The position numbers were made by a program, and so were the translations under genes. 64,000 bases of DNA from the NCBI GenBank assembly GCA_963514005.1, contig OY740803.1, positions 29,822,001 to 29,886,000 on the forward strand. Direction: 5' to 3'. The stretch comes from Raja brachyura (Eukaryota). Below the pieces are notes generated by a model. That model was not told the DNA's origin, searched no databases, and saw only the letters and a list, made by a program, of their open reading frames with translations. Below are positions 29,101 to 53,100 of this stretch, one piece after another. The number at the start of each line of letters is the position of its first letter. Positions within the stretch are counted from its first letter, which is position 1.

Positions 29101-32100
29101 GTCCAGCTGTAAAAGTTACTTGGATCTAAAACTGACCCTTACAATCACTTGAAAGCAATATCAAAAAGTTGCATTCTTGATCGTCATGTAATCTGCATTC
29201 ACACATTTGTTTGGAAGGAATACCAAACCCATGTTATGAGGTTATAGGTTATACCAAACCCACGCAAGTACATCCCATTTATCCAGACAAAATCTAGAAA
29301 TGTGCAGTCCAAGCAACTAGGCACTGGCTTCATAAAGCTGTTGTTTAATGAAAGCCTTGCAGCAGCACTGGCCGCAAGAATGGAATGTCTAGTGCTGATC
29401 AAGAAGCACATCTCTGGAGCGTTCCAACATAGACATTTTCTGGGTCATCTGTTTATCCAGCATGCAGGTCAATGACGGATCTTCATGATCCTGAGATGTA
29501 TTATCAGTGGAAATTAGTCAAATTTATTGAAGATGTTAGGTTTAATCTTGATTTTGTGCAATGTTAGCTACCAACCCTCTGTCATTCATTTTGCACAATC
29601 TTGCACGCAAGATCTTTCACATTGAGCCTTTAAATCTAGAGGATTTAATTAATATTATGTTTGGCATTTGCATGTTAACTTGAAATTATTTTAATCATGC
29701 TGTGTGTTCCCCATTTAAATGTAGTGGCTGAGTACTGACGTTTATTCCTGTTTCTGATTAGATCGCTTCCTTAGTAAAGTGAGTATGATAAATACTGTAA
29801 AAACAGTCACTTTACCAGGTGTTCGGTCAGTGCAATCAATGACAGTGTAAAATGGGTGATACATATCACCCCAAGATTTACGCCAGTCAGTCTTGTACTG
29901 CACCATTTTAAATGGAATTAACCCAGGGATAGTTAAATCAAGTTTTTTTTACTCCATTAGATATTTGTAACTCCCCGATACAGAATGTTATCAAACATTA
30001 ATAATTCCAAAATTCATGAAATTACAAAATTAATGACTGAAAGTAAGACAATTTAATATTCTGTGGAATATTTCTTCAAAAATTGGAATAGTGCAGTATT
30101 TGAAACCCCGAGGAAGTAGAAGTGTTTCCAGCACACAATTTAGGAGAGTGAAGACAAAATCCCCTGAAAAACAATTGAATGGTGCAAAGAGTATGGGGCA
30201 GCTTGTCATTCTCTATTAAATGTCAAGGCTAAATCAAGCAACAAAATTGCCATCTCCTCTCCCTGTCTGCCTCATTTCAAAATTTGTGTGCTCCATTCTA
30301 GTAAATATGACATTAATTTATGCAGAAATTGTGATTGGTAGAAAGTTCAAATAACAATGTGCTACAACGATGTTTAAAGATCATTTGTGTACTGCAGCTC
30401 TGTGTTAATTCATGATTTTTTTCAAATCATAAATGATTTTTTTAAATGTCTTCCACAGATATTGACTCAAGAAGATTGGAACAAGGTCCTCTATAATGGG
30501 ATGGCCTCCACCTCTCCATGGGCTGCTTTATACTTCATTGCCCTCATGACATTTGGGAATTATGTTCTCTTTAACTTGTTAGTTGCCATTTTGGTGGAAG
30601 GATTTCAGACTGAGGTAAAATACAAGTAATAACTCTTTGAGTGATGCATGACAGTTAGTATTGCATTGTGCAATGTAGCTTAAGGCTGTATGTGATTGGT
30701 GATAGTATTTCCTAAAGATCACTGCCATTCTCAGCTCCCTGATAAATATGCAGCACGTCAGAAAATTATATTTGGGTCCGTTGTCACCTCACACAATAAC
30801 ATAGGAGTCAACGAAAGCCTTTGAATTTAGGGATCCCTGACAGTTTTTCCAATCACTATTGTATTTGCTGCCATTCAATTTAAAATAAATGTAAAATATT
30901 TTTTAACAAATATAGTAAAATGTCCATTTGCATTCTAATATGTTTCTCTGCTTAAAATAGATTTATAAAGTGTCTATTGACAAATTTATTATTTATTCAA
31001 TACCCATTCTAATGAGGCTATAAAAACATAAATAATAAATGTAAAGCTATCGCCATGATTTACTGTGACAATTCATTAAAATTTGAGTCAGATCTTGCTG
31101 TAAAATGTTGGTGGTTACATTTAACACTGGACAGCACTGTGGTGCAGCTGTAAGAGCTGCTCCTTCTCAGCTCCAGTGACCCAGGTTCAATTTGACCTTG
31201 GGTGCTGCCTGTGTGGAGTTTGCATGTTCTCCCTGTGACTGCATGAGTTTCCTCCGAGAGCACCGTTTTCCTCTCTCATCCCAAAAATGTGTTTGCTGGT
31301 AAGTGAATTGGTTACTGTAAATTGCTCCTGGTGTGCAAGTAAATATTAGAATGTGAGGAGTTTTTTTTGGGAAACGATTGAAATAAAATAGGATTCATGT
31401 AAATGGATCCGTGGGGATTCAGTGGGCTAAAGAGTCTATTTCCACACTGTTTGGCTCTATAACTTTGGGGCATGAATATCTGAACATACAAGCCTCAGAC
31501 TTGATGAGACATTTGAACCAGCAAAACAGAAATGCAAGGTGAACTTGCTGAAAATCCCCAAATAGCTTCACCCGGCAAGCTTAGCGCCTTGGATTTGAAA
31601 CAGGTGAATGTGCGACAGTTGCAGAATCCAAGCGGCAAGTAAAGCAAGCGAGTCCCTCTCAGCAAAGTCGGTCTTGTAACACGAAATAGCATAATAAAGT
31701 GGTATTTAATGAAACCCCGCAGTGATATCCAACAAAATTAAAATAGGCTCACTGATGCACAGCGAATCTGCCACAGTCTATACTTATTAGGTGAGTCTGT
31801 CAGTAAAATAAAGGATCTGACAATGTAACCTGATGAATTGAGTTTGTTAATTTGAAGTTAATTCTTTGCTGCAGTTGTTCGAGGGCAACTGTATATTGGC
31901 TTTGCTGCATTATTCTAAATTTTTTGAAAATATATTTCTACAATTAGTCATATTTTTCAATATTGTTATTTATGCTTTAAAACTTCTGCTTCAAAGTTAT
32001 CTGGGACCAAATGTTTACATAGGATGATTCCCTTCAATTACATCTCAATTTGTGCTCTCAGAAAACATGTGAACCATGGGCCGAACAAAAAAGTCCAAGC

Positions 32101-35100
32101 TTTTTGCAATTGAAAGCTTCAACAACAGTTAGCACATGGTCTAATCTTCCTTTTCCTATGTGATTGTTGGACAATGCAGATGAATATGTTCTCCCTCTGA
32201 ATATATATGTTGGTAGTTCAGACTACAAACCAAAACTAGCTTTAACTTACAAGTTAATATTGTATGATTTTCCTCCAATCCCTAAATGATATTTTTTTAA
32301 TGCTTCGTGAAACAAGAATTTGCAAGTATCTTATGTAATTATTATTGTCTAATGTAAGTTCATTGCTAAGGCCATTCCAAAATTGCTGATCGGTTTCTCA
32401 CTTATTGATGGTTGGTCTTCATTAGGGCACCCAAGATGCAGACGTACTATATTATGCCTAATAGCTATGTGTTTTGTGCTCCAGTAATATCTTAATTTGG
32501 AAAAATTACAAATCAATCTATTATCCTTTCAGTTATGTAGCAATGTTGGCATTTCCTGTACTTTTAAAATAAGGTTATCAATGTTGGTGTTCATATCCAT
32601 TTTGCAATTTGTTTGTACTGTGAAAAGGCAGGCTTAAAATTAGCTGATTTGGTGACATTAACAGAGACTAACCCGACAGCCTCTTTAGGCATGACTGCAG
32701 TCTGCCGTATCAGATCACATCAATTTAAATACTTTGCATTATCAGGCAACTTTCTTGTTTTGACTGGTCTATTTCTTTTAAGTGTTTCATTTAAATTTAG
32801 ATTAACGGTGGGAATGTTTGTATTGGATGAGAATATTTTTTATTTCAAATGTGCCTTTCCGTGGAATTCCTCCTTTTTAAAAGTTAAACAGAAAATGTGA
32901 AAATACTCAGCAGATATTGTAGCAACTGCAGAGAGAGAGAGAGAGAGAGAGAAACAGTTAATGTATCAAGCCTTTCACTGGCCTAATAATTAAAAGCATT
33001 AATTATTTTTCTCCCAGTACAGATGCTGCCTGAAGTTCTGAGTATTTCATATAGTTTCTGCATTATATCAAACTTCTGGAAACTGCTATATTTTGCTTTT
33101 GTATATATTCTTTCATTCTGGTTCTTTCCGAGAGCAACGCTAAAGCGATAGGGAGAGTTTGGGAGAAGTATGAAATGGTAGAAAAATTAAGTTATCACTT
33201 ATCATGACGTCAATACTAGATAGAGGAAATGCATTTTGAAAGGAAAAATAACGAGGAAAATAAAATCAATAACACAATTTTATAGGGAGTGCAGGAACTG
33301 AAATTCTAGGTTTTTCAATGGCATACATGATTGAAATTGAACGAATAAAATTGATAACATTTTTTTTGAAGAGCTTGCTTTATAATAAAACTAATGAGCA
33401 CAAAAGCAAAGCAATTTAAACTAAACCTTTCAGAATCATTATTTAAACATCAACTGGCATCTTATGCCCAATTGTAAGACTGACAAGAGAAAGGACTTTG
33501 AGTCCAGAAAGTGATAACCAGAGTGGTCCAGGAAAGAGGAGTTTTAGCATCTTTATCCTGAGAAGCTGACAATGTTGGACAGGAGGTTATTGAGATATCT
33601 AGTTACTTTATTCCAAACTGTATCTGATTGCAAAAGTTTGGATAAGTAAAAACTGATGCCTTTCCAAAGGAGACATCTAAAAGAATTAGCAAAATAGCCT
33701 GGGAGAAATTTTTTTGCATTGCATGCTTTCATAAACTGTCTGGAAGAATAGTCGAGGCAAATTCAGTAATAACTTCTTGAACATTGGTGAATGACATTTT
33801 CGTCCACCTATTAGTAACAAATCATTATTAATTAAAAAAATATATATTCAAACATGCTTATCATTTCCAACCTGTAGAATTAACCAAACTAAATCATCTA
33901 TTTAATGTAATATGTTTTCTGTGCATTTCCTTTTAGAATATCAGCAAGTGGATGTTGAGATTGATGTGATCTAATGGGCAATGACTGTGCAGAAATGCAT
34001 ACAAGTGAATGCATTGGATCCATGAACTAATTCATTTCAGGGAATATATAAAATAAATGGAGCCGCATGGTTCAAACCAAGATCCCCAGAACTGAAAAAT
34101 GGCCCCAAAATCACTTCCCTGCATCAATTGCTGCATTTCGGAACATACATTATATATATATTGCTTAGACCCTTCAGAACTAACTTCAATTTATCTCCAA
34201 TATGTCAATGGGATGGTGCCCATTAAAACCTATACCCATTGCATTTTATTCCATGCCATTAAGCTGGTATACTATCCATTCATGTGGTTTCTAAAATCGA
34301 AGCTGGAGGTTCACTTGATGTTTTCTAAACTTGCTAGCAATCCCAACATACGATTTTCAAAGGGTAATTTTGCCTCCTCTTGGCATGAATAATTTTGGTA
34401 TATGTTTGAAGGCTTTATCTCGCCATCATTTACACCTCATTGATGTTACATACAGTATGTTAGGCGCACTATAGCATTTCTTATCTAACAATAGTACAGT
34501 ATTCTGCACTTTAACCTACATGAATTTGTCTGATGTCAGAAGAATGTTGATAGTAAAACAGGATTTAGCCAATTGCATTTGCCTTATTGAAAATGGACAT
34601 ATTAGTTATGAATTCAATCAGTAAAATAGTAAGCGTTTTAACATTGTTCCACGTCACCTGTACATTAAGTTGCACCTGAATAACCAATGTTATCGAACAT
34701 TGCCTGAGGCACTGCTCAACCAATTAAAAAAAGAAGGCAATTTCATCCAAAATATTTATTCAGAGCTATAAGAAATGGTTCTTGATGAATATCAAGGAGC
34801 CACTGTTTTTTTGGTGACTGTTACACTATGTTAGATTTGCACACCTTGTCAAAGATTTGTCTGATCTCCATTGAGAGTTCTTGAGCAAATTGACTCTATT
34901 CTGTATTTATTCCTCCAACTTACCAGTGATTTTCAGCACATAAACACATTTTGGTACTTTCATTACATGCTTTTGCTAATAATAGTGGTTGCTAGGCAAC
35001 AGTAATAATTTGCAAGTGAGACCATTTTATAAAATATGCTTTGGCTGCTGAAATGTGTTTGGGGTATCTTTTTGCATGATGTTTGTGGAGGGTTTACATG

Positions 35101-38100
35101 GAACTTGGTGTTTGGAGCTTATTTGTCTCTTTACTGCTTAAACAGATTATGTAATGTGACTGTATGAAGTTGCTGGCTATTTGCATGTTCATACAATAAG
35201 TAAGAATCACATGACTAATTTACAGGTTGAAATTTCTTGGATGTCTCTTCGAAATTTAATCATGTACCATTGACAATACTACCCATGAGCCTAAGTGTCA
35301 TCTTGTCAGAAATTTCGCCATGTTGTCTGATCATAATACTGTATGTGGAGAAAAGACGTCTACTTTATTCCTATCATCCTATACATTACTTCATGCCCAT
35401 ACTGTCACTGTCTCTTTTCAAAATATATTGTCCATATTGTCATTCTGTTCTCAAACCACACCTGCTACTTATCACTTTCTCTCTATGTTTTCAACTATTG
35501 ATTCCTATTTTCTGCCAAGTGGTGTACATGTGCAATTAGTAGTTATTGCTGACTGCACCTCACAATGTTAGGTCTGTTTTCTCTTTTTCTTTGTAGTTAA
35601 TTGTAATTTCCCACCAGGCAGCAGGCGCTTTTCCTTCAGCATCTCTACCTTATCACTATTTTGTATTAATGACATAACCTTCAGAGATACTGTACATGGA
35701 TGCAAATGATGCTGTGTCATGAGTTATTAGGGTTCAATATATTCACCAATTAATATTTATATTATCTATTTCCTCAACTGTTCTATATTTGTAGAATAAT
35801 TTCTCAGATGATAACAATGATACATTCTGTACCACTTTATGATATTACAATACAGATAAATAAATTTGATTGTAGTTGCAGAGGAATCTCCATAAATACT
35901 GTTGGGATTAACCAGTAGATTTTTCATTAGAAATGCTTCTTTACATCAATCAGATAGACTCCTGAGAATTTCAGATATTAATTCACTCATCAATATCCTT
36001 TTCTGAAATCTGAAATCTCCTCGAACTGCCCATTCTTGACTTAGTTTAGGATACTTGAGATCACCTTGTATTTCAGTCATCAGATGCCCGTAGTGAGGTA
36101 GAGAGCCAGATACTTACTCCCAGATGTAAATTTTTTTTCTCACTCGTATTTCCCTCTTAAATGAAAATGGTGTTAAATAGGGCCAGACTAATGCCAATCC
36201 AGTGCTGTGGACTTCATTAGAATTGGTTTGTGAGCTTATTGCATACAAAAAATAATGATGCTACGGTTTCGGAAGTAAAGTCAAGAACTACCTAAACAGG
36301 CTGCTACTTTAACAAATGACACATCATTGTTGGCAGCATGCCTCTGAGTCAAAGAACTAACTTAAAAGAAGGGAAAATTCTATCTTGCCACACATATATA
36401 TTGATTTTGATTTAAATTCAGCTTTAGAAAGATGAGTTTATCAAAATAATAATTATCATTTTGTTTCTGAAGGAAGCTAATATTTATTAAGAGCTGTTAG
36501 ATCAAATAGGTGGCAATAATAAGGCAAATCACTGGATTTGTGAATGTGATATCACCTGTAATATGGAGATTGGTTATCCAGGTATTATTATGTTATGTTT
36601 TGCCTGTGTTGTGATTAATTGTGGACTTATCCTAACCTCAGTACAAATAATTAGAAAAAAATCATAAATTTTTTGAACTTTTTTCCCTTCAATTAACTGT
36701 GCTTTCTGTTTCCAAAGTGTCTGAAATATTTAAGTTGAATGTATTTCAGTCACCTCAATATCGACACCATGTTTGTTTCACTTCAGGAGGTCCCGAAGCG
36801 GGAGGATGCGAGTGGGCAGTTAAGCTGTATTCAGCTGCCTGTCGACTCGTCTGGGGTACGTAACTGTTCACCGTGAATTCACAGCTGAGACTTTTTTTTT
36901 TAAATGAACCAGCACAGAGGGAGAAGAGTTGCCAGCCTTTGAACTGTTTTTTAAAAAACAATTGTGTCTGCCTCCTTTCTGATTTTTTTCTCTTTTCAAT
37001 GATCCCTTAATTGGTCTGACAGAACTTTTTTTATCATTTCATCTGACATTGCATCCAAACAAAGATTGATTGAAGACTGAACCCTTTGTTTCTTTTTGTT
37101 TTCAAGTCAAGAAAGTTTATTGTCATATGTCCCAAATAGGACAATGAAATTCTTACTTTAGGCTGACTTAGGTATTTACTTTTTCTAGTTGAATCTTTTG
37201 TGATTTGAATTTGATTTAAATATACAGTTATTAACAATGACACAAAAATGGCATGTTATATTTTTTATAGTGTTTTCAAACTTAACTGTGATGGCCACCC
37301 TAAAGATAAATCATCACCAGCAATGGTTTAGTGGATTAAGCCGGGATTTGGTTGATTACATTTGAAGACATGTTGCATTAATTTTGTACTCCTTGGGTAC
37401 AAAAAAAAATGTGATTGAATCCGAATTAAGTTACTTTAAATTTTGAATTTATGTAATAAGATGAATGCAGCAATTTTGTTTTTGCTGGTTGGTCAGGGGA
37501 ATAGAATGTTAATTCCATAGCTCGGCCATTTTGATGGGGAAGAAAGGTTTCAGTGGATATTCCACAAAATAGGTCCATTCGAGGCTAAGACCAATAGAGT
37601 TCCTTGGGCCAGAGTATCAAAAAGTCTAGGCAGGTAAAAAAAATAGAAGTGATAAATCAACCATGATCGATTTGAATGTCGGGGCTGATTTAGAATCCGA
37701 ACAGACTCCTCGTTTTGGAGTAAAGGAGTTCTACCCTTGGCAGGGTATTTGATGCCATAAGACAAGGTTGAATAGATATGTAACAAAGATAATGGAAAAA
37801 CATATTGTACTGGAGGATCAAAAGGCAAATCTTTTTTTACCACAATCTAAAACATGCTTAATGTGCCAGAGTTCACAATTAGATGAAGGGCAAAGTGCCC
37901 TTTATACTATACCAATAATATGTGCAACTACATTACTGTAGCATTCTCCATACTCGTCACTCTGTGGAAGCAAAATTGTGTCAGTGACTGATAAATTCCA
38001 GTTGTGGGCCAACACCCATTGTGTTTATGATTTGCGTGATTGGCAATCATTTCATGTCTCAAATTCAGTTGCAGAAAAATACTATACACGAGGGGGTAGT

Positions 38101-41100
38101 TCATTTAGCGATGTTACTTAGATTGCATTCAGGGATTTTGGACAAATGGAAAATGTTGAACTCTCGTTGTTAAATTTCTTGCATTACTTTCATCAAAGTT
38201 TGGTGATTCAAATTTCTGATTTGAGTGATGCTAACATAGCCAGTGTTTTGACATTGGACTGAATGAGATCTGGAATGGGTTAGTCACTCCCAGTGAGAAC
38301 AGTATGTGGCTTTGTATTATGTTATTCTCAGTTCCCATGCAGAATGACAGAAAATCAGTACAATAATCCATTCAGCAGGAGTTGAATTTACTGCTGACTG
38401 CGTTGAGTCACGTCTATCCTTATTCCAGTTTATAGCTCATCTGTGTTTTTGAAAACCCGGGTAGTCAAGCGGAGGTGTTGAATGATGATAACTGAAAATA
38501 AGTTTAAATATATGAATGTTACGAAAGGATTTGAGAAGGCTGAGAAGATATTGGTTTAAAAGAGGCCATAAGTCCAATAAAAGAGGCCATAAGTGCATTA
38601 AATTCAGCAAGAATTCAGGAGAAATATCTTTATCCTGAGTGGGCATAATGTGGAACTTGCTACCGCATTGAGTGGTTGGAATAGTGCAGGTGCTTTTTTT
38701 TTAAAGTTATATAAACACAGGAAGAAAATGGTGTGCAAAAAAAGGTTAGATGAAATAGGCAGAGGCAATACGAATTTGTAGCATAAGCATCTGCAAAGAC
38801 CAAGGTAAATGTTTAGAATGCTGGAGATTCTCAGCAGGTTAGGCAGCTTCTACAGAGAGAGCAACTGAGGTATGTTTCAGCTTGAGGACCATTCATCAGA
38901 ACCACAAAGTCCAGTCTGGCTGAATGGCTCATTTGTAAATTGCTAATTTGTTGTGATATGAAGTAACATATCCTTCTCAATATGCAAAATAGCTCAAGTA
39001 CTTGCGATGAACCTTTGCATGAAGTTGCTGTTGCCACTTAATGAATAGAGTCATTATTCACACACCTTTCCTCCCTGACATAAAACTGAGGGGTTCGATG
39101 CCACACCCTCTCTCCAGCACACCAGTGCCCCACTGCTGAATCAATGCTGGATCTTCTGGCATCAGAGTTCAGGCTCAGGCTTCATCTGTGACTGAGCATG
39201 TGTCACTGAAGTTTGAATGGCAGACATCTAGCAGTTCTCCACAAAATTACCAATAGTCAACCAGCTCAGTCAGACCCAGTGACTCAGTCTCACTGAAACA
39301 CGGCACCTTATTCAACCGAGAATGTCCACCACCAACAACTCAGTTTAAACAGTGCCTCTGTCAGTCTACTGCAGTGAACCCAATCATCTTGCCTATAATT
39401 TAGTTTTCTCTAGGATCAGATCTACCCCACTGATCTATTGGCTGCCTCCCATCCTTCACCTCCCATATACAATACTTAACTTTAAGCAAAAACCTTTCAG
39501 CCACTTCAAAAATTATACCACTTCAGAAACATTCTGTCCATTACATACAACCATCATCTTGACTTGCCAACCCATGAAATCTCTATTTTCCCCAATCCTT
39601 CAGAATTATAATGTATTTCAATTATTTCTGAGTCTTGTCCCTCAGTCTCTCTGTATCTCCTCTGGCTTAATCAAATCCTCAGTATACTGTAAACATCTGA
39701 ATCTGATATGTATTACTATCTCCCCTTTTACACTTTTAGCAGCTAATCAGTTACCAACGAATGCTCCGGGTCCTTGAATTCCCTCCAATACTTTCTGCCT
39801 CTCCATTCTCTCTTCCTTTAAGATATGCCTTAAACCCCAATAATTTGACCAAACTATTAGTTCTCATTCTATATGTTATCTTTTTCTTTCACTCCATCTT
39901 GGTTGGATTGCTCCTCTGAGAAATGGCCTGCAGCAATTTTCTACAATGAAAGGGCAGTGTGAGAGCATTCTTTTTTTTGTTGAGCAATTCAAATTAATAA
40001 TAAAGATGATCAAGTTGATGTGAGAAAGCAGAATACTCTGAAATAAGCTTAAGCTGAAAGGAAATAGGTGAGCCCTGTGAAGGAATTTGTAAAATAACTT
40101 ATGAAGGCAGTTTTTGTGTTTGCAAACAAACATTAAGTATTGACTGTAATTGGTCGACAAGAGAGATTAATTTGAACAGTAGTCTTGTCTGGACTTTACG
40201 TTTTCTCTTCCTAATCCTTCGAACTGATGCCACACTTCTTTGAACTCTCCAGATGTCTTCCCCCCTCCACGGCTTCTATATTATCAGACTACTTGGCGAA
40301 AATTAAATTCTGAATATGAAGCTTTTTATTTATAAACGCTTTAATGTCCAAAAGGATGCATTTGAATTGTAAAGCTAATTTTAGATTTATATCTCTGATG
40401 TTTGAGTCTTTGTTTTCCAGCTGCCATTGTGTCTGAGATGGGCTTCCCTGTGTTGTCTTATATTAATGATATTTATTTCACTATTTAACATCAAACTGAC
40501 AAAACTTACAAAACACTTACAAAATTCCTAAGGGGTTGGACAGGCTAGACGCAGGAAGATTGTTCCCGATGTTGGGGAGGTCCAGAACAAGGGGTCACAG
40601 TCTAAGGATAAGGGGGAATTCCCTTAGGACCGAGATGAGGAAAACATTTTTCACACAGAGAGTGGTGAGTCTCTGGAATTCCCTGCCACAGAAGGTAGTT
40701 GAGGCCAGTTCATTGGCTATATTTAAGAGGGAGTTAGATGTGGCCCTTGTGGCTAAAGGGATCAGGGGGCATGGAGAGAAGGCAGGTACAGGATATTGAG
40801 TTGGATGATCAGCCATGATCATATTGAATGGCGGTGCAGGCTCGAAGGGCCTAATGGCCTACTCCTGCACTTATTTTCTATGTTTCTCTGTTTCTATGTA
40901 TGTTCTCTTCTCGAATATAGGTTGGATATGTAGCAAAGTCACTTTCCTCACAAAACTTCCAATTTAACCAAGCGGTTGGCGTCATTTTCAAGATGGCACC
41001 GTGAAGATAGTCATCACAGTTTTGACCAAAAGTCATGCTGACAAATCTCCTTGATTTATTTCAACATGTTAATGGATAGATTTCGACTTAACAGTGCATT

Positions 41101-44100
41101 CTCCACTCCCGCTGCTTGCCTGATAAATATTAAGAGATTCAAGAAAGGTTTATATTTAGTAGGCTGCAATGAAGTGTCCATACTATTACACAATCAGCTG
41201 TGAAACTAAACTAAGGGTGTGTATGTGGCAATGCAGAGGGTGCTGCAGGGAATTCCAATCTGAAATGTGGTGCTTGGGTAGAAAAGGCTTCATGAAAAGA
41301 TTTGGCATTGTTTTAAACACTTGTACAGGTCCATCATTACGGGGCAACTTGCTGTGATGTTCCTGCCAGTTCTTAGATCCACGCCAACGAGGGAACTCAA
41401 CAAAGTAAAAAGAACAAGAATCCATCCACAAAAAAACAATTATTTCTGTTCTTCATAATTTAAGTAAACCGATATTTAACAAGAGCCTAGAGCATACTAG
41501 ATTGTACACATTTTGTAGTTTTGTCAATTAATCATATTCTGAACAATTGTGAGGTCCTTTGTGGATGACAGGAGAGTAAAAAGGAATAGAAAGAACTTCA
41601 AAATTCAGCTGTCCACTTCTAAGTAATCAGAAGCATGTTTACCTCAACTGTCAAGGTTGAACATTATTACTTTATACATTATTTTTAGGTTTTTAGCTGA
41701 GTGGAATGCAGTTGTAATTGTTTCTGATTACAGAATTTGGTAGGTTATCTCCAATCACATATCATGCCTGCATTGATTATTCATTTCGATGTCAGATCTG
41801 GTGTTGGTTCTCCATTCACTGAATGGTGTTGGTTCTCATTCAATGCTCTTTTGGATTTTTGCCGATGAAATTCATGCACGTAATCCAAAGAGAACCAGCT
41901 GTTTGCAACTCTGCCCAACCAGGTATAATTAAGACGCCTGAGGTACAGTAGCACAATTTAAAACGTGTCTCTCTGAGTAGGATTCAGGCTGGTTCTGGAA
42001 ACCCCCATTCAGATTGATCCCTGATAGTTAATTATTTTCCTTCACTTGTTTGGTCCAATGTTATGGCTCCACTCACTCCGTGTACAGATCCCACCTCACA
42101 AAGCTCAAAACCTTTCCCCAACCCTATCCAATCACCGACCAACTCCCCTCCAAGCCTGGATCACCCCAATCAGCCCCACCAGTCCATCAAATAACTATCA
42201 ATTGCAAATCCACTCTCCCCAAAAACCAATCATGGGCTTCTGAGCACTAACCTCAGATCCCTGATTACAGAATTTGACCCTCATCATTACTCTCAGCCTC
42301 TCTCGCCGATCACCCCAGCAAATACAACCATGGTAGTCCCTTCACATTGTTTACAAAGGAGAAGCCTTCCTTTTTAAAGTTAACCAGTAGGTCTGATATT
42401 TTGAGGGCCCCAGAGGCAATGAAGAATTTCTAGGCCAATGATTGTGTTTTGGAAAGTTGTAACGTCTCCTCAGAAGTGTGGGGAATGGTGATTCTCTTCC
42501 TTCCTGTTTCCAGTCAAGTAAAGCTTGCGGCTTCTATCTGTGCCTTTGTTCCATTTCTTTTCCACTTGGCTCACTTGGTGTCTATCAGTCTTCTCATGTT
42601 TCCTGTACATCCACCAAACCTTTCAGAATATATTGGGGGAAAAGAACACTGTATAAAATAGCGTATCTAGCATTAACTAAATTTTTCTTTCATTGAATCC
42701 TTCTTTTACTCAGAAAGTCAAAGTGGGACAAGAACCTCAGGTAAATAATGTAGACTTGATACATTCCTTGCCTGTTTACCAAATAAAGTTAGGCAATTGT
42801 TATTTCAAGGGCTAGTGGGACATTGGCATATTGCTACACTGGTTACAGAGAGACATTGAACTTTTGGATGAAGGTGGTTATCATAGTTCATTTTGCTACT
42901 CTATTCTATCACTACTGCTGTGTGTCTAAAATCCTTTATCTCTTTGTTTGCTATCACTTTTGGATCACAAAAGGCCAGAGGTCACAATATCATCAATCTT
43001 CTAAAATCTTCAGTCATGCAACAATTGTTACAACAAGCTTTAAGCCGTTTACATTGTTTTATGAGTTATTGAAATAATTATAATTTAGTTGGCCAAAGGA
43101 CAAGTTGGAAGCCAAATAGCAACTTAGGCACTAGGCTGAACTCATAACCCTTGTTTAGATCTACTTCTGTACAAAATATATAAGGAAATCACAGTGGCAA
43201 CTGAAGATATATGCCAAAATAACAAAAGTAGTGCATAATATTTAAATACATCAAACTAGCAGAAATGATCATTAATTGGCTGTTGTGTTTGTTAGTTCTA
43301 TCACATGATACCATAACCTGAAAATCCAAAATGACTGAATTTGCCCCAAGTTCATTGAAATTGTGGATCAATTTGTACCAGTCTCTTACAAAAGTGGTGG
43401 TTAAGCAGAGGGGCACACACCTCACGCATGTTCAGTAGCTCTGTCTGCTTCCTGCCACACTAAAGGTTTGGGGCTGATCAACTTTATGATCAAAGCCACA
43501 TCAATAACTCTTATTGATTTACTTAACTTGTTAATGAGTCGGTTATCAACTATTCCAATGGAAATTGTGTCAAGAGTCTAAGGTGTTTAATTGTCATATG
43601 TACCGGGAACAAAATAATGACATTCTTACTGAATACAGCTTTACAGGTCTAATAAAACAATACTGTAACTCAGTCTGCTAACTGAGATTGAGATTCTAGG
43701 ATGTGCAATGATAGGGAACTCAGTGCACATTTAAATTACTCCTGTGAATAATGTTATAAAACAACAATGGAGAGGATATAATGTGACGTTGAAAATATTT
43801 ATCTAATATAAAAGTTTCAATATAACATGATAGGTTGTAAGGATACTGTGGGCCTGAAACCATCCACTTCTCTTTTAACCTGCATTCATGGTTGTGTTAA
43901 ATGCGAGGACATGAAAAATCTGCCATTTGGTTGGAACAAGCTGGTACAAATCCAAGCTTTCATTCTCTAATTTGTGAAGCTTAGTTCATTTAGTAGACTT
44001 TACATACTTACATACATAAAGCTAAATCCAACCGTCATGCATTCCCTCAGTAGTAACTGTCCACTATCATTTTGATTGCACCTCTTCATTGTGGCTAGGT

Positions 44101-47100
44101 TGATGCCATTCACACCAGGGTTGGACAATTACAGATTCAAGGTTCTGTCCCTGAGCTTCAAACACTAAATTATGGATTACTGACAGAACGCTACATTAAA
44201 TGGCATGTTTACCCTTTTGCTGCAGCATTGAACTGAAGCGTCATCTGCCACCCTCAAATAGTTGTAAAGAGTTTTGGGCGACTGTTTGAAAAAGAACAAG
44301 CTCTCCCCATATTTATCTCTCATTCAAAATCTCAAAATAGACCAAGATCATTATTATATTTCATTTATTCGACCATGCTGTGTGCAAATGTGGTTGTTTC
44401 TTGCATGACAATGGCATCTACACTTCTAAAGTACCATAACATTGGTAGGGATGGCGAATGGTTTTGAAAGGTGCTTTGTAATTGTAAGTTTTTATTTTCT
44501 TTCTTGGTTTATGTTAACTGACCAGTGAACAGGGAAACACTTGCCACAATGAACTCATGATCTTCGACCAAGTTCTGTCACTACTTCGCTTTCTGAGGCA
44601 AGAGAGATTCACATAAATATAACAAAAACAAATGCTACAACATGTCCAGAGATTCTTAGCACCATTTTAATCTTTTTAATCTCTATCCTGAACGGGGTCG
44701 CAACTTTTCCCTGTCGAGTTTCCTGTTGTCGTTGGGGCCTAACATCGTGGACCCAGCGGCCTCAAACCGGAATCGACCTGGAGCTCCAGTCGCAGAGCCT
44801 GCGGACTCACCATCGCGGAGCTGGCTGACTTCGGAGCGTGGAGCGTTGTGGTGGCGCGCGGCTGCGACCCGACTTTGGAGCTTCGGAGGCTTCGGCTGCA
44901 GGCCCTGTGGACGGTAACATCGGGAGTTCGCGTGTCCCTGGTGGGAGACCGTTTTTCGGAGGTCCCGCAACGGCAACTTCGCCGGCCAGAATCGAGGGGT
45001 TTAAATTGACCCGGAGCGGGGCCTTACATCGCCCGGCGCGGCTTAAACGGCCGCGGGACTTACCATCGTCTGCCGGGGGCTCTAACATCAAGCGCCTCAA
45101 TCAGCTCAATCAGTTTGACTGCTTGACTGCGGGGGAAGAATAAAGAACAGAGAACAGGGAAGAGATAAGACTTTTGCCTTCCATCACAGTGAGGAGGTGT
45201 TTGGAGATTCACTGTGATGGATATTTGTGTGGAATTGTGTTAATTGTGTGTTTTGGTTTTTTGCTGTTATGACTGCAGGAACAAAATTTTGTTTGAACCT
45301 TGTATGTTTAAACGACAATAAATGGCATTCTATTCTGTTCTATTCCATCTATTTGTAACAATATTTTACCATTAATATTACCTTTAGTCCACCACTTTCA
45401 TACCCTCAATCCCTAAGCTACAATAAGCAATATTTCCAACACAAATAGTAGCATCTAGGACGTATGACAGATTCCAAAAGTAAGCAAGAACCAATAGTGA
45501 TCAAAAAACAGTGAATGAAAAGCGACCAAAAGATAATCTATTTCACTTTCTCACAGCATGCTCTTTTTATAACCTGGAATCCTACAGAAGTAACAACAGA
45601 AGTCACAAGCTGTAGCTCAGCAGGTAGCGTCTGATCCAATGTGAGGTTGTGATATTTTGTCAGCTGGAAGGTATATGGCCAATAAGAAGATATGTATGTT
45701 ATTAACCTTTTCAAATTATGTTACTATCTTGAAATCAACCAAGAGCACTTTATGCTGCATGAGCTGCTCACAATAAGCATGTTGTAATAATTGTTGTATG
45801 GCTGAGATTAAAATCAATTTCAAAAATTAAAATCAAATTATTACTTATCAGCTTTTTCCAAGACCCTCCCCTGTAATTGAGGTAAGGATCATAATATTTT
45901 ATTTACATTATTACCTTTTCCTTCCAAGATGTTAATTTCGATGATCAATGTCAGTGGAGGGAATGTGAGGGGATTGTACCTGAATTTTGCAAAATTCTGC
46001 ATCCATAACTTAAGTCTTTCCCTTCACTTTCACTCAAGGGAGATGTCTCAAAGTCGGACTCAGAGGCTGACTTTTATTGTCAGAGCCTGGATGATGATAG
46101 TGGAAGCAGAAAGGATCTTCCAAATACTGCGCGTAAGTTGATAAATACATTTAAGATACAGGTAGTGTACTGTGTGTATCTTAAGGAGGTATATATTTGC
46201 AATGCAAATTGACATTATTAATAGCAGAGCCAGTTTAAAAGATATGCTTTCAAAGTGTTTCCAAGGTAGATTGATTGTACTAAACCAGTAATAACCTCTA
46301 CAGCTGATTCCCTAAATCTGCCTGTATTTTATATGAAATTTGTATTCCTGAAACATCTACCTATTTATACCTTATACGTATAGATCACATCCTTCTATTC
46401 CCAGAAATTTTGAACGTTAACATCAGAAATTTTGGATGATGTTTTCATTTTGGTATTTCCAGTAGTACTATTTGTAATTCTGATCAAAACACAAAGTGCT
46501 AGAGGAACTTATTGGGTCAGGCAGCATCTGTGGAGGGAAGAGACAGATGACATTTTGGATTGGGCCCCATCTTCAGACAGATTGAAGTAGGGTGTGAAAG
46601 CTGGAAAAGAGACGTGGAGTCAGTGCAAAACCTGGCACGTGTTAGGTGGACGCAGGTAGACTCGGCAACTGTTTCACCGAGCGTTTGCAGTTTGACGGCA
46701 AAGGCCTGCCGGACCTCCTGATTGCTAATCATTTTAACTCCTTTTCTCATTCCGATACTTACCTTTCTGTCCCTTGCCAGAGTGAGGCCACATGGAAACT
46801 GAGCAACAGCACCTTATACTCCGCATGGGTAGCTTATAACCCTACAGTATGAACATTGAAATCTTCAATATCAAGGAATACCTCCCTCCCTCCCTCGCAT
46901 CTTCCTTCTCTATCCAATGCCACCTCCCCAACTGCTCTCCCCCCCCACACCTCAGTGCACATGCATTCTCTCGCCATCTCCTACCTCTTCCCGTCACCCT
47001 TCTCCTTCCCCTCCTACACACACTCATCTCCCTTCCCCTAGTCCCCCATATCCCTCGTATCCTCCCTTGATTCCCTTCCCCCCTGTCCCTTTCCACCCAT

Positions 47101-50100
47101 ATCATACCATGTCATAAGTGATAGGAGCAGAATTAGACCATTAGGCCCATTCAGTATGCTCTGCCATTCAATCATGGCTGATCTGATCTATCTCACCCTC
47201 CTAACCCCATTTTCCAACCTTCTCCCCATAACTCCTGACACCCGTACTAATCAAGAATCTATCTCCCTCTGCCTTAAAAATATCCACTGACTTGACCTCC
47301 ACAGCCTACTGTGGCAAAGAATTCCACAGATTCACCACCCTCTGATTAAATAAATTCCTCCTCATCTTCCCAAAGGAACATCCTTTAATTCTGAGGCTAT
47401 GACCTTTAGTCCTTGACGCTCCCACTCGTGGAAACATCATCTCCACATCCACTCTATCCAAGCCTTTCACTATTTTGTATGTTTCAGGAGTGAAGTGAGA
47501 ATGAGCCCAGGGTTGGGTGGGTCTCTGATGATGCTGGCGACCTTTTTGAGTGAGGGACTCCTGTAGATCCCTTCGATAGTGGGGAGACCAGTACCCGTGA
47601 TGGCCTGGGCAGTATTCATCATTTTTTGCAATCTTCTTCATTCCTGGCCATTGGAGTCGCGGAACCTTTCCTTGATGCAGCCAGTCAATATGCTCTCTAC
47701 TGCACACCAAGAGTGTATTCATTGGCATGCTGAATTTCCTCAATCCTCTAAGGAAGGATTTTAATGATTTTTTAATGATTTTTTAATACTTTTTTATGAT
47801 TACATCAGTGAGCTGAGGCTAGGACGGATCTTCAAAGACATGCACGCCCAGGAATTTGAAGCTTTTGCCAACGACCTTTAAGACAGAGTGAAATGATAAT
47901 ATCAATTCTTTGCTTGTGCTAAAAAATTGTTTGAAAGGAATATATCTTGAGTCAGTAAAATTATAGGTGTTATAAAATCAAGACCAACAAACTTAATTTT
48001 TTTTTTCTATGCAGTGATGACAGCAAATGGTAATTTGGATGTTAAAACCAGTCTGACCCCACCGCTCATCATCCACACCAATGCAACACCAATGCCAACA
48101 CCAAAGGGGATGCTTTGTGGTGATTCTGTGCACATGTACAGTGATTCCCGCAGAGGTAGCAATGTATCAATCGATCCCAATTACTACGAGCAGAAGTCAC
48201 CGGTAAGACCATCTGTATTTTCGACAGAATAGGGCATTTCTTTTCATAGCATGAGGAGCATTGCATCAGAATGTCGAACATAATTATTAGAAGCAAGTGT
48301 AGGCACTCCCCGACCTACGTAATAGGCAAATAAGGAACACACCCCTCAAAATATGGAATATTAACACAAAACCATCTCTATTGCGGTAGACCCTCTGAAA
48401 CGTTGCATACAAAACAATGATTGATAGATTTCTTTCTGTTAAAAGAATCAAGAGATATGAGAACAAATCAAGAAAATGGTGCTATAGCTATCAGATCTCC
48501 AAAACAAGATTAAGGGATCAAGTGGCCTTTCCTTGCCTCCATTTCTTATGTTTTCATGCTTTTTTAACAACATTTGACCCAACTGTCCCCTTCAGGGATC
48601 TGTGGACATACACAAAATCCACCTGTTCCTCCGCTCTCCTGGCGCAGTGAGAGAGTTGCTGCCTTACAGTTGCAGGGACCCGGGTTCGATCCTGACTACA
48701 GGTGCTGTCTGTACAGAGTTTGGGGGTTTCCTCCCGCACTTCAAAGATGTATATGTTTGTAGTCTATTTGGCTTGGTAAAATTGTAAACTGTCCCTAGTG
48801 TGTGTAGGATAGTGTTAGTGTGTGGGGATCGCTGGTCAGCATGGACACGGTGGGCCGAAGGGCCTGTTTCTGCACTGTATCTCTAAACTAGGCAAAACTA
48901 CTTCTTCCTTTTCTATGGAGCAGTCTGATAGTGTTTACCTCATTGGGTGTCATTCTTACCTTAGAGAAAGAAGGACGAGGTTTCAAGTCTCACTCCAGAG
49001 ACTTGAGCACTAATTCTATGATGCTGCACAGTTGGAAGAGCCACCTTTTGGATCCAGTGGTGAAGTAGATCTGTCTACTCAGATCAATGATAAATATTTA
49101 TTGGTACAATTTAGGAGGCGAGCAAGGGTGATTCTATCCAGCACCCTGATAAATTATTTATTGCCACCGGATATAACAAAGTAATTGCTATATGCAGATT
49201 GGGCACTGTGTTCTCATATGTTACTGGAGCAGCTGCACTTAAAAAGGGTACCAGATTATATAAGAGGAGCTTAGGAATTTCCTGAAGATGTTAAAAGAAC
49301 AATATAAATACAAGCTTCTATCTCTCCTATTCAAAATCTTCTTCTCTTCTTCCTTTCCACATTGTTCTCTCACTCCTTCCCAATACTTGGATAAAAAGTA
49401 ATAAATTAAATTTCCTTTTACCAATCTTAAGAATCGAAGAATGAGGAGCAGAAAGAGGCCATTCAGCTCCTCAAGTGTGCTCCACAACTCAACAGGGTAA
49501 TGGCATGTCTTCTATTTCAACACAATTTTCCTCCGCAGTCTCAATATCCTCTTTAACTTGCAGAAACCAATCAGTCTCATATTCAAATAAAATCCATAAC
49601 TAAGTCTCCACAGTCCCCAGAGTGCAGAGCCTAAAGGTTCACCGTCCTTTAACTGAAGAACTTTCTCTTCATTTGATCAATATCATGAAATTCTCCTTTC
49701 ATTGAAGGGGTTTATTCTTACTTGGGTACAAATACTTTGGTCATTACAAGACCTACCGGTTACGTTGCGTCAGTGTGGGTAAGAGTTACTGGTTTTCTGA
49801 TTCTGTGTTTATTCCCCCTCAGTCGAGTGCACGTAGCTCCCCCTACGCTCCTTGGAGCACAGCCAGTAGCTGGAACAGTCGCCGCTCGAGCTGGAACAGC
49901 CTTTGCCGAGCACAAAGCCTGAAGCGCAAGCACCAGTCTGGTGAGCGAAAGTCACTCCTCTCGGGTGATGGCAAAGAAAGTTCTGAAGAAGGCGATGGAT
50001 CGGAGGATGAGAAAGCCAGTCGGGCAGGTGGAGAGAGGGGGCCTGCTCCTCTGCGCCTGGAATCTCTGGAGATGAAGAGTTCTTTCGATATTCCTGAAAC

Positions 50101-53100
50101 CCTGCAGGTGCCCAGTCTTCACAGATCCCCCAGCATCCATAGCAGCAGGACCCCACCACTGGACTGCCAGGACTGTAATGGTAAGATGTCCCCTGTCAAC
50201 ATGCTACGCCAGTTCCACGTGGATGAACAGCGAGCTGAGTTCGAGAATGCTGAAGACGAAGTTGATTTGGTGAGTTGTACGTGTGCCTGAACTATACATA
50301 GTGTTTTATATTTGATGATTTCTCCCAGGGATACATTGAACGGTGTAAACAGAGGAAATGGATGTCCTATCATACTTATCTCTAGGCTTATGTCATTATT
50401 AATCTCCCTTTCTCCAGGAGAAGACACACTGGCTACTGAAAACCAAAGAAGTTCCCTCTATCAAACAGGATTTCTTTATTTCAGGTTCCCTGTTTTACTG
50501 TCACTATTTCTCTCATCTTCTTGTGTGTTGTGAATATCTCTTCCAATCACAAACATTGTGGCTCACAACAACATGAACCAGAGGCCTAAAGAAATAAAAA
50601 TGACCCACATTTTGGAGGGGAAATGTCAGCAATTTTGTGTATTGCTGCTAGGACTTCCCCAGCTCGGAGTCACCACGTATGAGATCTCTGCAACTGTGTG
50701 TCCAAACAAAATGGTTCCGAATTTCCTGACAACTGTTCATCAATTCAACTACGTTGCAAAGTTAAAATCGCTTGGAGTTTAGCATTGGAAATTGCAGAAA
50801 GTCATCCTCCATCCCTTACATGCTCGTAAGGGACAAAGCAGTACATTTTTTTTAATTGTTTAAACATTTTTTATCATTTTTAATAGTATTATAAAACTAT
50901 TTAATAATTTTGATTGATTCTGAATATCAGACTCTTGGACGCATATGTACCTTTTGACAGTCTGCTGCACAAGGGGGCAATGATTTGCCATCTGTCACTT
51001 TCATTGTGGGTCATAATATTCTAATCCATCTATGAAATGCCACCAAGCATAGAGCACAGTATATGGGCCAAAAATAAAAAAAACTCACTAAGAGCAAGAT
51101 ACGTTTGCTAACTGTGTTCAATACTTCAAATTGTATGTAGTTTGGTACCATTTAAGGATTGTGGTTGCAGGAGATGTTGCCAGAGTAGAATCATTTTGAT
51201 CGAACCCTGGATCATTTGGCTCTGTTATTGGTGATGATGCATATTCAGGGATTTGGCATCAATGTTATGTCTTATTACTATAATCTGTATGATACCTATT
51301 CATAAGGGGGCAACTCAGCCCATTGAGTCTATGCTGGCTCACCATGGAACTATTCCAGTAATCCTATTTGTCCTCTTTCTATCCTCTGCAACTTATTATC
51401 TCTCAATTCTCCTTTGACTCTTTTTCTACTTACCTGCACTTAGGTGTGATTTACAGTAAAACAATTAACCTTACAGCATATATTTGGTATGTGAGAGGAA
51501 ACATGAGAGCAACTGGGGGAAGCAGTGATGTAGCAGAGAGTATATGAAACATTCACCCACAGTGTGCAAGTATGAGATCGCACCCGAGTCCTTATTAAAG
51601 CTGTGTGATAGAAACATTTACTGCTACACCACCCAGTGTCCTACACATCACTTGCACTTTTGTTTTTGTCAAGTGAGAGTATTTTATCAGAGTTAAATTT
51701 GCCTCTGCCGTTGCTGAAGGAACCACTTCCAAATATGTTCTCTGAATGCAATCCTCCTGTATTCAGCGACTGGAATGAACCCAACACAGAATCTGGACTC
51801 CAGAACTGACATGTGCTACCTTGTTTCTGCAGAGCAAATGTGCACGGTTGCTGGCATGGATTCAAAGCAAGCTACCGCCTTGTTTCAAACAGCGGGAGGG
51901 CTGGTCGCTCTATCTCTTTCCACCACAGTCCAAGTAAGAAATTAAAACCTATTGAATTTTTGCCGTTAATTGAAAGAGGGCAACTGGAAATGTATTTATA
52001 TATTGCCTATAGTACAGCAAACTCCAGGGGCAACATAGAAGCCTAAACAGATACATTTTACCTTTTCCACATATGAGGGTGAAAATTGTGCTTAAAAACT
52101 ATATATTTTAACAATAAATATAAGCATTAACATAACGTGGTCTAATTACAAAGGACATGTTACAGCTTGAAATCCACAAATCAGAGATGGGAAAATTAAA
52201 TGAATTAGAATTGTGCTGATAATACACAGGTCATAAGGTCATAAGGGATAGTAGAATTAGGCCATTCAACCCATCAAGTCTACTCCACCGTTCAATCATG
52301 GCTGATCTATCTCTCCCTCCTAATCCCATTCTCCAGCCTTCTCCCCATAACCCTTGACACCTGTACTAATCAAGAATCTATCTATCTCTGCCTTAATAAT
52401 ATCCACTGACTGCCTCCACAGCCTTCAGTGGCAAATAGTTCCACAGATTCACCAGAGGGCTGAAGGAATCTACAGAGAAGTGGTGTCCATGTGTAAGTTT
52501 GAGACCTGGTGCCAATGTAGGATGTAGAGGCACATTAGTTATAGGTGAACAAGAGTTGATAGCCTTTTAGAGGTTCCCACAAGAAGTAAATGAAAAAAAC
52601 ATATCTTCAGGAGCTCAAATAAGTGGTTTTAAGGTCATGATAATTTAATTTTATTTATATAATTTAGTTGACAAACAAATGTTTAAGAAATTAAGTGCGC
52701 AGAAGTACTCTAGAGAACTGGGACAGTTTTTCATGACTTAAGCAGAGAAGGATATAAAACTATGATAGGCATTGATAGGGTGCCAATGAATAGGGGGCAA
52801 AGCTTTAAGGTAAAAGGAGGAAAGTTTAAAGAAGATGTGTGGGGCAAGGTTTTTACACAAAGTGGAACACTTTGCCAGGGGAAGCGGTGGAAGCCGATAT
52901 TATAATGGCGTTTCTACGACTTTTAGATAGGCACATGGCTCTGTGAGGAATGGAGTGGTATGGATCATATGAAGGCAGATGAGATTAGTTTATATTAGCA
53001 TTATGTTCAGCACAAACATTGTGGGTCAAAGGGACTATTCATGTGCTGTACTTTTCTATGTTCTATGAAACAAAGAGCTAGTTTCTCTAATATATCATCA

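Follow-up and report, generated by a model that had tools for sequence, protein, structure and literature searches.

Does a cartilaginous fish carry the optional exon that lengthens the II-III loop of mammalian Cav3.1, and if it does, how old is that exon, is it used as a choice and what has kept it constant? These questions are raised by the window analyzed here, a stretch of 64,000 nucleotides from Raja brachyura (contig OY740803.1, positions 29,822,001 to 29,886,000), the exons of which are numbered by the human/mouse convention (Table 1). Exon 17 is far closer to alpha-1G than to alpha-1H or alpha-1I, which identifies the host gene as CACNA1G, and the top named homologues returned for this exon by the homologue search are alpha-1G. 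The exon 15 peptide is identical, by eye, to Amblyraja and Leucoraja models. Its AAG acceptor (46036-46038) lies behind a strong pyrimidine tract, and the other ten mapped exons have CAG or TAG at this position.

Between exons 13 and 15, the preliminary description had placed a 69-nt phase 0-0 exon with introns of about 6.2 and 9.2 kb on its two sides. This structure was verified on reading the sequence: the coordinates, the CAG acceptor, the GTACGT donor and the open 23-codon frame are as described, the gaps to the flanking exons measure 6172 and 9183 nt, and the exon is indeed missing from the ORF track, its frame being absent from the list of ORFs of at least 60 aa. The interval is a real CACNA1G exon, correctly identified as exon 14, which adds 23 residues in frame at the beginning of the II-III linker, immediately after IIS6. 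It does not sit alone, as had been claimed, given that the 9.2-kb gap contains another phase 0-0 exon, 27 nt long and here named 14b, which divides it into 5858 + 27 + 3298 nt; this microexon also keeps the frame and adds nine residues at the start of the linker. We consider it highly probable that Raja Cav3.1 has a frame-preserving exon 14, likely left out of some transcripts, followed by a likely optional microexon, and that the resulting protein versions, up to four in number after the IIS6 gate helix, likely serve to tune gating.

Table 1. Exons of Raja brachyura CACNA1G and of its paralogues (window positions unless a contig is named)
Feature	Position	Strand	Description
CACNA1G exon 13 (pore loop + IIS6 helix), upstream constitutive	30459..30614	+	52 aa; E 6.5e-35 to human Cav3.1 (6KZO residues 919-970); AG/GT ends
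Exon 14 orthologue ('insertion e')	36787..36855	+	69 nt, phase 0-0 cassette; 23/23 vs several ray, skate and sawshark models; splice-scan candidate
Microexon 14b	42714..42740	+	27 nt, phase 0-0, peptide KVKVGQEPQ; pyrimidine tract + CAG, donor GTAAAT
CACNA1G exon 15, downstream constitutive, AAG acceptor	46039..46132	+	tblastn; weak match (E 0.28) to 6KZO 971-995
CACNA1G exon 16	48015..48202	+	tblastn 95% to skate P0234; AG/GT ends
CACNA1G exon 17 (II-III linker)	49823..50269	+	PDB: alpha-1G E 1.4e-32, alpha-1H 7.3e-14, alpha-1I 1.8e-4
CACNA1G exon 19	end at 55606		
Exon 13 equivalent, H-like paralogue	C21:29979137-29979292	-	next intron ~2.26 kb
Exon 13 equivalent, I-like paralogue	C55:11366858-11367013	-	next intron ~1.44 kb

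Comparison with bony vertebrates supports the Raja exon as the orthologue of mammalian CACNA1G exon 14. Homologue searches were queried with the flanking exons and isoforms were added by cluster look-ups, yielding a placental set of 120 models (whales, pig, bats and carnivores) in which one identical 23-residue insert occurs in 67 models, is skipped in 52 and could not be parsed in one. The Raja peptide agrees with this insert at 20 of 23 positions (87%); the match of about 20/23 that had been given for human exon 14 stands as a number, with non-human placentals as the partner in the comparison. The exon also aligns to marsupial, bird, coelacanth and bichir peptides, with identities of 21/23 in pigeon, 20/23 in coelacanth, 19/23 in wombat and 18/23 in bichir. 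The accessible texts describe human insertion 'e' as 23 aa within the II-III loop (PMC7503748) and mouse exon 14 as a 69-bp cassette that gives a 13-17 amplicon of 692 or 623 bp and is mostly skipped in cerebellum (PMC2696442). The Raja exon therefore shares with its human and mouse counterparts its length, its location at the beginning of the loop with exons 13 and 15 on either side, its high identity (to placental models) and the existence, among the skate's relatives, of both included and skipped forms. It differs in three substitutions relative to placentals and in being followed by a 27-nt microexon, an exon that does not appear in the human and mouse cassette lists as given in the accessible part of PMC2696442 (exons 14, 26, 34 and 35). 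The exon 14 peptide has no match in the PDB at E up to 10 because the human construct 6KZO skips this exon, with exon 13 running straight into exon 15.

The second exon is also matched by existing gene models. Its peptide is identical at 9/9 residues to stingray model P0226 and at 8/9 to skate model P0234, as compared with 5/9 for the next best site in the region and at most 6/9 in 100 shuffles, and the donor agrees with the consensus at 8/9 positions. A splice-site scan of the 15.4 kb between exons 13 and 15 (30615-46038), with thresholds chosen after both exons were known, returned two candidates only, exon 14 and 14b, both of which correspond to database inserts; control DNA gave three candidates in 45.4 kb. 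Among public isoforms, the nine extra residues occur either after exon 14 or in place of it, and the four possible forms (neither, 14, 14b, both) are all present among shark and ray models, with no one species having all four. Shark and ray CACNA1G isoforms such as XP_078257297.1, XP_072882846.1 and XP_067914009.1 have, as in Raja, the 9-residue insert behind exon 14; the stingray insert is identical to 14b, and these predicted models show no difference of substance from the Raja arrangement.

The distribution of the 9-residue insert is patchy. It is found in models of 6 of the 21 cartilaginous fish, in 1 of 15 bichir models and in five bird proteins, and is absent from all 146 mammalian models (mostly whales; 80 include exon 14, 62 skip it and 4 could not be parsed) and all 68 teleost models, as well as from three coelacanth models, four bowfin models and the 12 crocodilian-cluster members that could be parsed. 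The accessible text of PMC2696442 lists two sizes only for the mouse 13-17 amplicon. On the basis of length, position and 4/9 residues, the shark and ray insert is likely homologous to that of birds and bichirs, and 14b is likely an ancient exon that was lost in mammals. A competing explanation, which we regard as possible if distinctly less probable, is that the inserts do not descend from one ancestral exon and either had separate origins or, in birds and bichirs, arise from an upstream acceptor of exon 15. Raja and bird inserts indeed share just the four residues mentioned, the first and last residue of the insert may reflect splice-site bias, and the insert was not seen in coelacanth, bowfin, teleosts or the crocodilian cluster. 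However, all carriers have an insert of equal length at an identical junction, the bird and bichir inserts share 6/9 residues, and in Raja 14b is a free exon 3.3 kb away from exon 15. Short exons are, moreover, often missed by annotation. Common descent of the inserts is our preferred reading.

Neural microexons that depend on SRRM3/4 are 3-27 nt in size, a range into which 14b, at 27 nt and phase 0-0, fits. It further resembles them in preserving the frame, in its strong donor and in that it encodes a piece of a neuronal protein's cytoplasmic loop. Unlike these exons, 14b lacks a UGC between branch point and AG, as no TGC is present in the 150 nt upstream (42564-42713), and for this reason it was not assigned to the SRRM3/4-dependent class. 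The upstream UGC, according to the accessible part of the source, occurs in 74-79% of exons of this type and is not strictly needed (10.1101/2024.09.17.613571).

What, then, has kept exon 14 constant? Relative to narwhal, the transmembrane exons 10-13 are 95-98% identical and exon 14 is 87% identical, as against 45%, 42%, 54% and 52% for linker exons 15, 16, 17 and 18, respectively, in agreement with the earlier claim that exon 14 is better conserved than exons 15-16; across the bony-vertebrate comparisons (placental, pigeon, coelacanth and bichir), exons 15-18 range from 39 to 69%. This conservation is unevenly spread within the exon, with residues 11-18, an 8-residue core that includes a cysteine, invariant in 23/23 distinct peptides while the flanks vary. 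We favor the interpretation that this core is a short protein motif held beside the inner gate, and selection on the motif, rather than on CpG, would explain most of the conservation of exon 14.

The preliminary description had instead read the CpG content and the donor of the exon as hints of constraint on the nucleotides themselves. Exon 14 does retain five CpG in 69 nt (observed/expected 0.85) amid the CpG-poor introns 13 and 14a (0.28-0.29), yet as a sign of constraint this is weak: the density is raised relative to nine constitutive exons (P=0.036) and not clearly so relative to linker exons 15-18 (P=0.11), and in exon 17 alone at least five CpG occur in 55 of the 379 69-nt windows. The GTACGT donor proved ordinary, matching the consensus at 6/9 positions exactly as do those of exons 13 and 17, and the combination of CpG and donor was rejected as proof of nucleotide-level constraint. 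Conserved cassette exons are nonetheless often under constraint at the RNA level, and exon 14 could be conserved mainly as RNA, with splicing-control elements or structure fixing the bases and the peptide following passively. Together with the CpG count, the excess of NCG codons at synonymous Ser, Pro, Thr and Ala positions (3/5 in exon 14 versus 10/106; P=0.011, a post hoc comparison) leaves room for such an effect, although the excess over all synonymous opportunities is marginal (P=0.058). We judge this explanation unlikely, as the CpG density is like that of the other linker exons, the peptides vary conservatively in the flanks around an invariant core with its cysteine, and no TGCATG occurs in the 150 nt before exon 14 or in the 200 nt after it. 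TGCATG, an RBFOX-type motif, was also not found near 14b; nine copies are present in 30615-46038, one of them at 30645-30650, 31 nt into intron 13.

As to its age, exon 14 is found in models of 16 of the 21 cartilaginous-fish species (those with shortened names having been assigned via accession series). The five species without it comprise four that are represented by a single model and Callorhinchus, in which none of ten models includes the exon (four skip it and six are not parsable). Included and skipped forms of a 22-residue version occur in bichir and in each of the five teleost clusters read, and the exon encodes 23 residues in coelacanth, crocodilians, monitor lizard and birds. All the ray-finned fish seen thus have one codon fewer, and coelacanth, crocodilians and monitor lizard differ in the last residue of the exon (P0250, P0162, P0165 and P0523). 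The presence of exon 14 in sharks, rays and all the major bony-vertebrate branches sampled agrees with the earlier dating to the jawed-vertebrate ancestor. This date is supported as a minimum age because no cyclostome sequence was recognized: an exon 16 search of representatives returned 62 unnamed proteins, and of the 21 inspected none had an insert or could be recognized as cyclostome.

The alternative status of the exon, a further point of the preliminary description, is borne out for cartilaginous fish by database isoforms, which are predicted gene models, in that both included and skipped models occur in 7 of the 21 species, one of them a skate. A search of sequencing runs listed none of RNA. 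Contigs of four runs aligned to exon 13 and intron 13 consist of repeats plus one spliced exon 12-13 join that ends inside exon 13, and none shows either inclusion or skipping of exon 14; ten presumed-RNA runs matched 5-7% of words, shares that carry no evidence on exon 14. Hundreds of contigs from presumed-RNA runs of other organisms match a short interspersed repeat at 31125-31355. We regard it as very improbable that exon 14 is constitutive in Raja: several sharks and rays have only models that include it and no Raja transcript shows skipping, but seven relatives have both forms, and the single models available for Amblyraja and Leucoraja, the closest skates, contain neither exon 14 nor 14b. 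By analogy with these relatives, exon 14 is likely alternatively spliced in Raja. That it is a chance match or a dead pseudo-exon is practically excluded by its agreement with ray and skate models at 23/23 residues, its intact splice sites and a best local score of 117, far above the shuffle maxima of 35-38 for flanking intron pieces.

Both exons appear to be confined to one of the three Cav3 paralogues. The H-like and I-like loci lie on contigs other than that of CACNA1G, and their exon 13-15 introns (Table 1) are short in comparison with the 15.4 kb of CACNA1G. Searches of these CACNA1H and CACNA1I introns for exon 14 and 14b gave shuffle-level scores and no splice-scan candidate, which fits an origin of exon 14 on the G branch or its loss in both paralogues. 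Both paralogue introns contain a 7-residue stretch that resembles 14b, which was rejected as a dispersed repeat. A dispersed CpG-rich repeat at 44665-45335, within the intron that follows 14b, has copies at the paralogue loci as well. Exons 14 and 14b resemble the optional Cav3 linker exons 8b, 25c and 26 in being short optional inserts in cytoplasmic linkers with enlarged introns; these Cav3 exons, which tune gating or expression according to the accessible part of PMC3376122, are unlike 14 and 14b in being located in other linkers. In addition, 25c and 8b use alternative donors and have counterparts in snail, while 14 and 14b were found in the G paralogue only. We lean slightly towards a scenario in which the jawed-vertebrate ancestor had a G-specific switch of two cassettes, exon 14 and the 27-nt microexon, located at the IIS6 gate exit; mammals and teleosts would have lost the microexon independently and sharks, rays, bichirs and birds would have kept it, such that mammalian Cav3.1 would be a simplified form.

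At the level of mechanism, the choice at exon 14 multiplied by that at 14b would generate up to four versions of the stretch just after IIS6. Exon 14 would be regulated, probably by inclusion in neural tissue as extrapolated from mammals, with skipping expected from the skate's relatives and from mouse. Insertion e reportedly speeds Cav3.1 inactivation. An effect of exon 14 on gating or trafficking may extend from mammals, where one secondary sentence in the accessible part of PMC3376122 describes it, to Raja. Such an effect would also fit the II-III linker being, in the accessible portions of PMC3124264 and PMC9913649, a target of several kinases.

Exon 14 of sharks and rays is already in public annotation and is an ordinary, expected case of deep conservation, and 14b is likewise already present in public gene models. 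The surprise attached to the age of exon 14 was overstated, since the exon is annotated and vertebrate-ancestral neural exons are common: a preprint, in its accessible part, infers that 270 neural-specific exons were gained in the vertebrate ancestor, from a set that includes elephant shark (10.64898/2026.09.05.749416). Vertebrate-wide conservation of neural cassette exons is expected, and current views are not overturned. The 27-nt exon is a modest new lead. A literature search of titles and abstract starts, with subscription journals thinly covered, found no paper on exon 14 in cartilaginous fish or on the 27-nt exon, and the accessible part of PMC12149502 addresses neither. These results make a known splice switch of Cav3.1 at least as old as the split of sharks and bony fish, and the invariant 8-residue core is an obvious target for establishing how exon 14 acts. 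If 14b was truly lost in mammals and teleosts, its gain and loss would make chicken or catshark a natural setting in which to test how T-type channels are tuned. Finally, the crocodilian CACNA1G models P0170, P0520, P0523 and P0525 are about 3600 aa long, and P0170 contains ABC-transporter domains and clusters with ABCC3 proteins; these models are probably read-through or fused annotations of neighboring genes.
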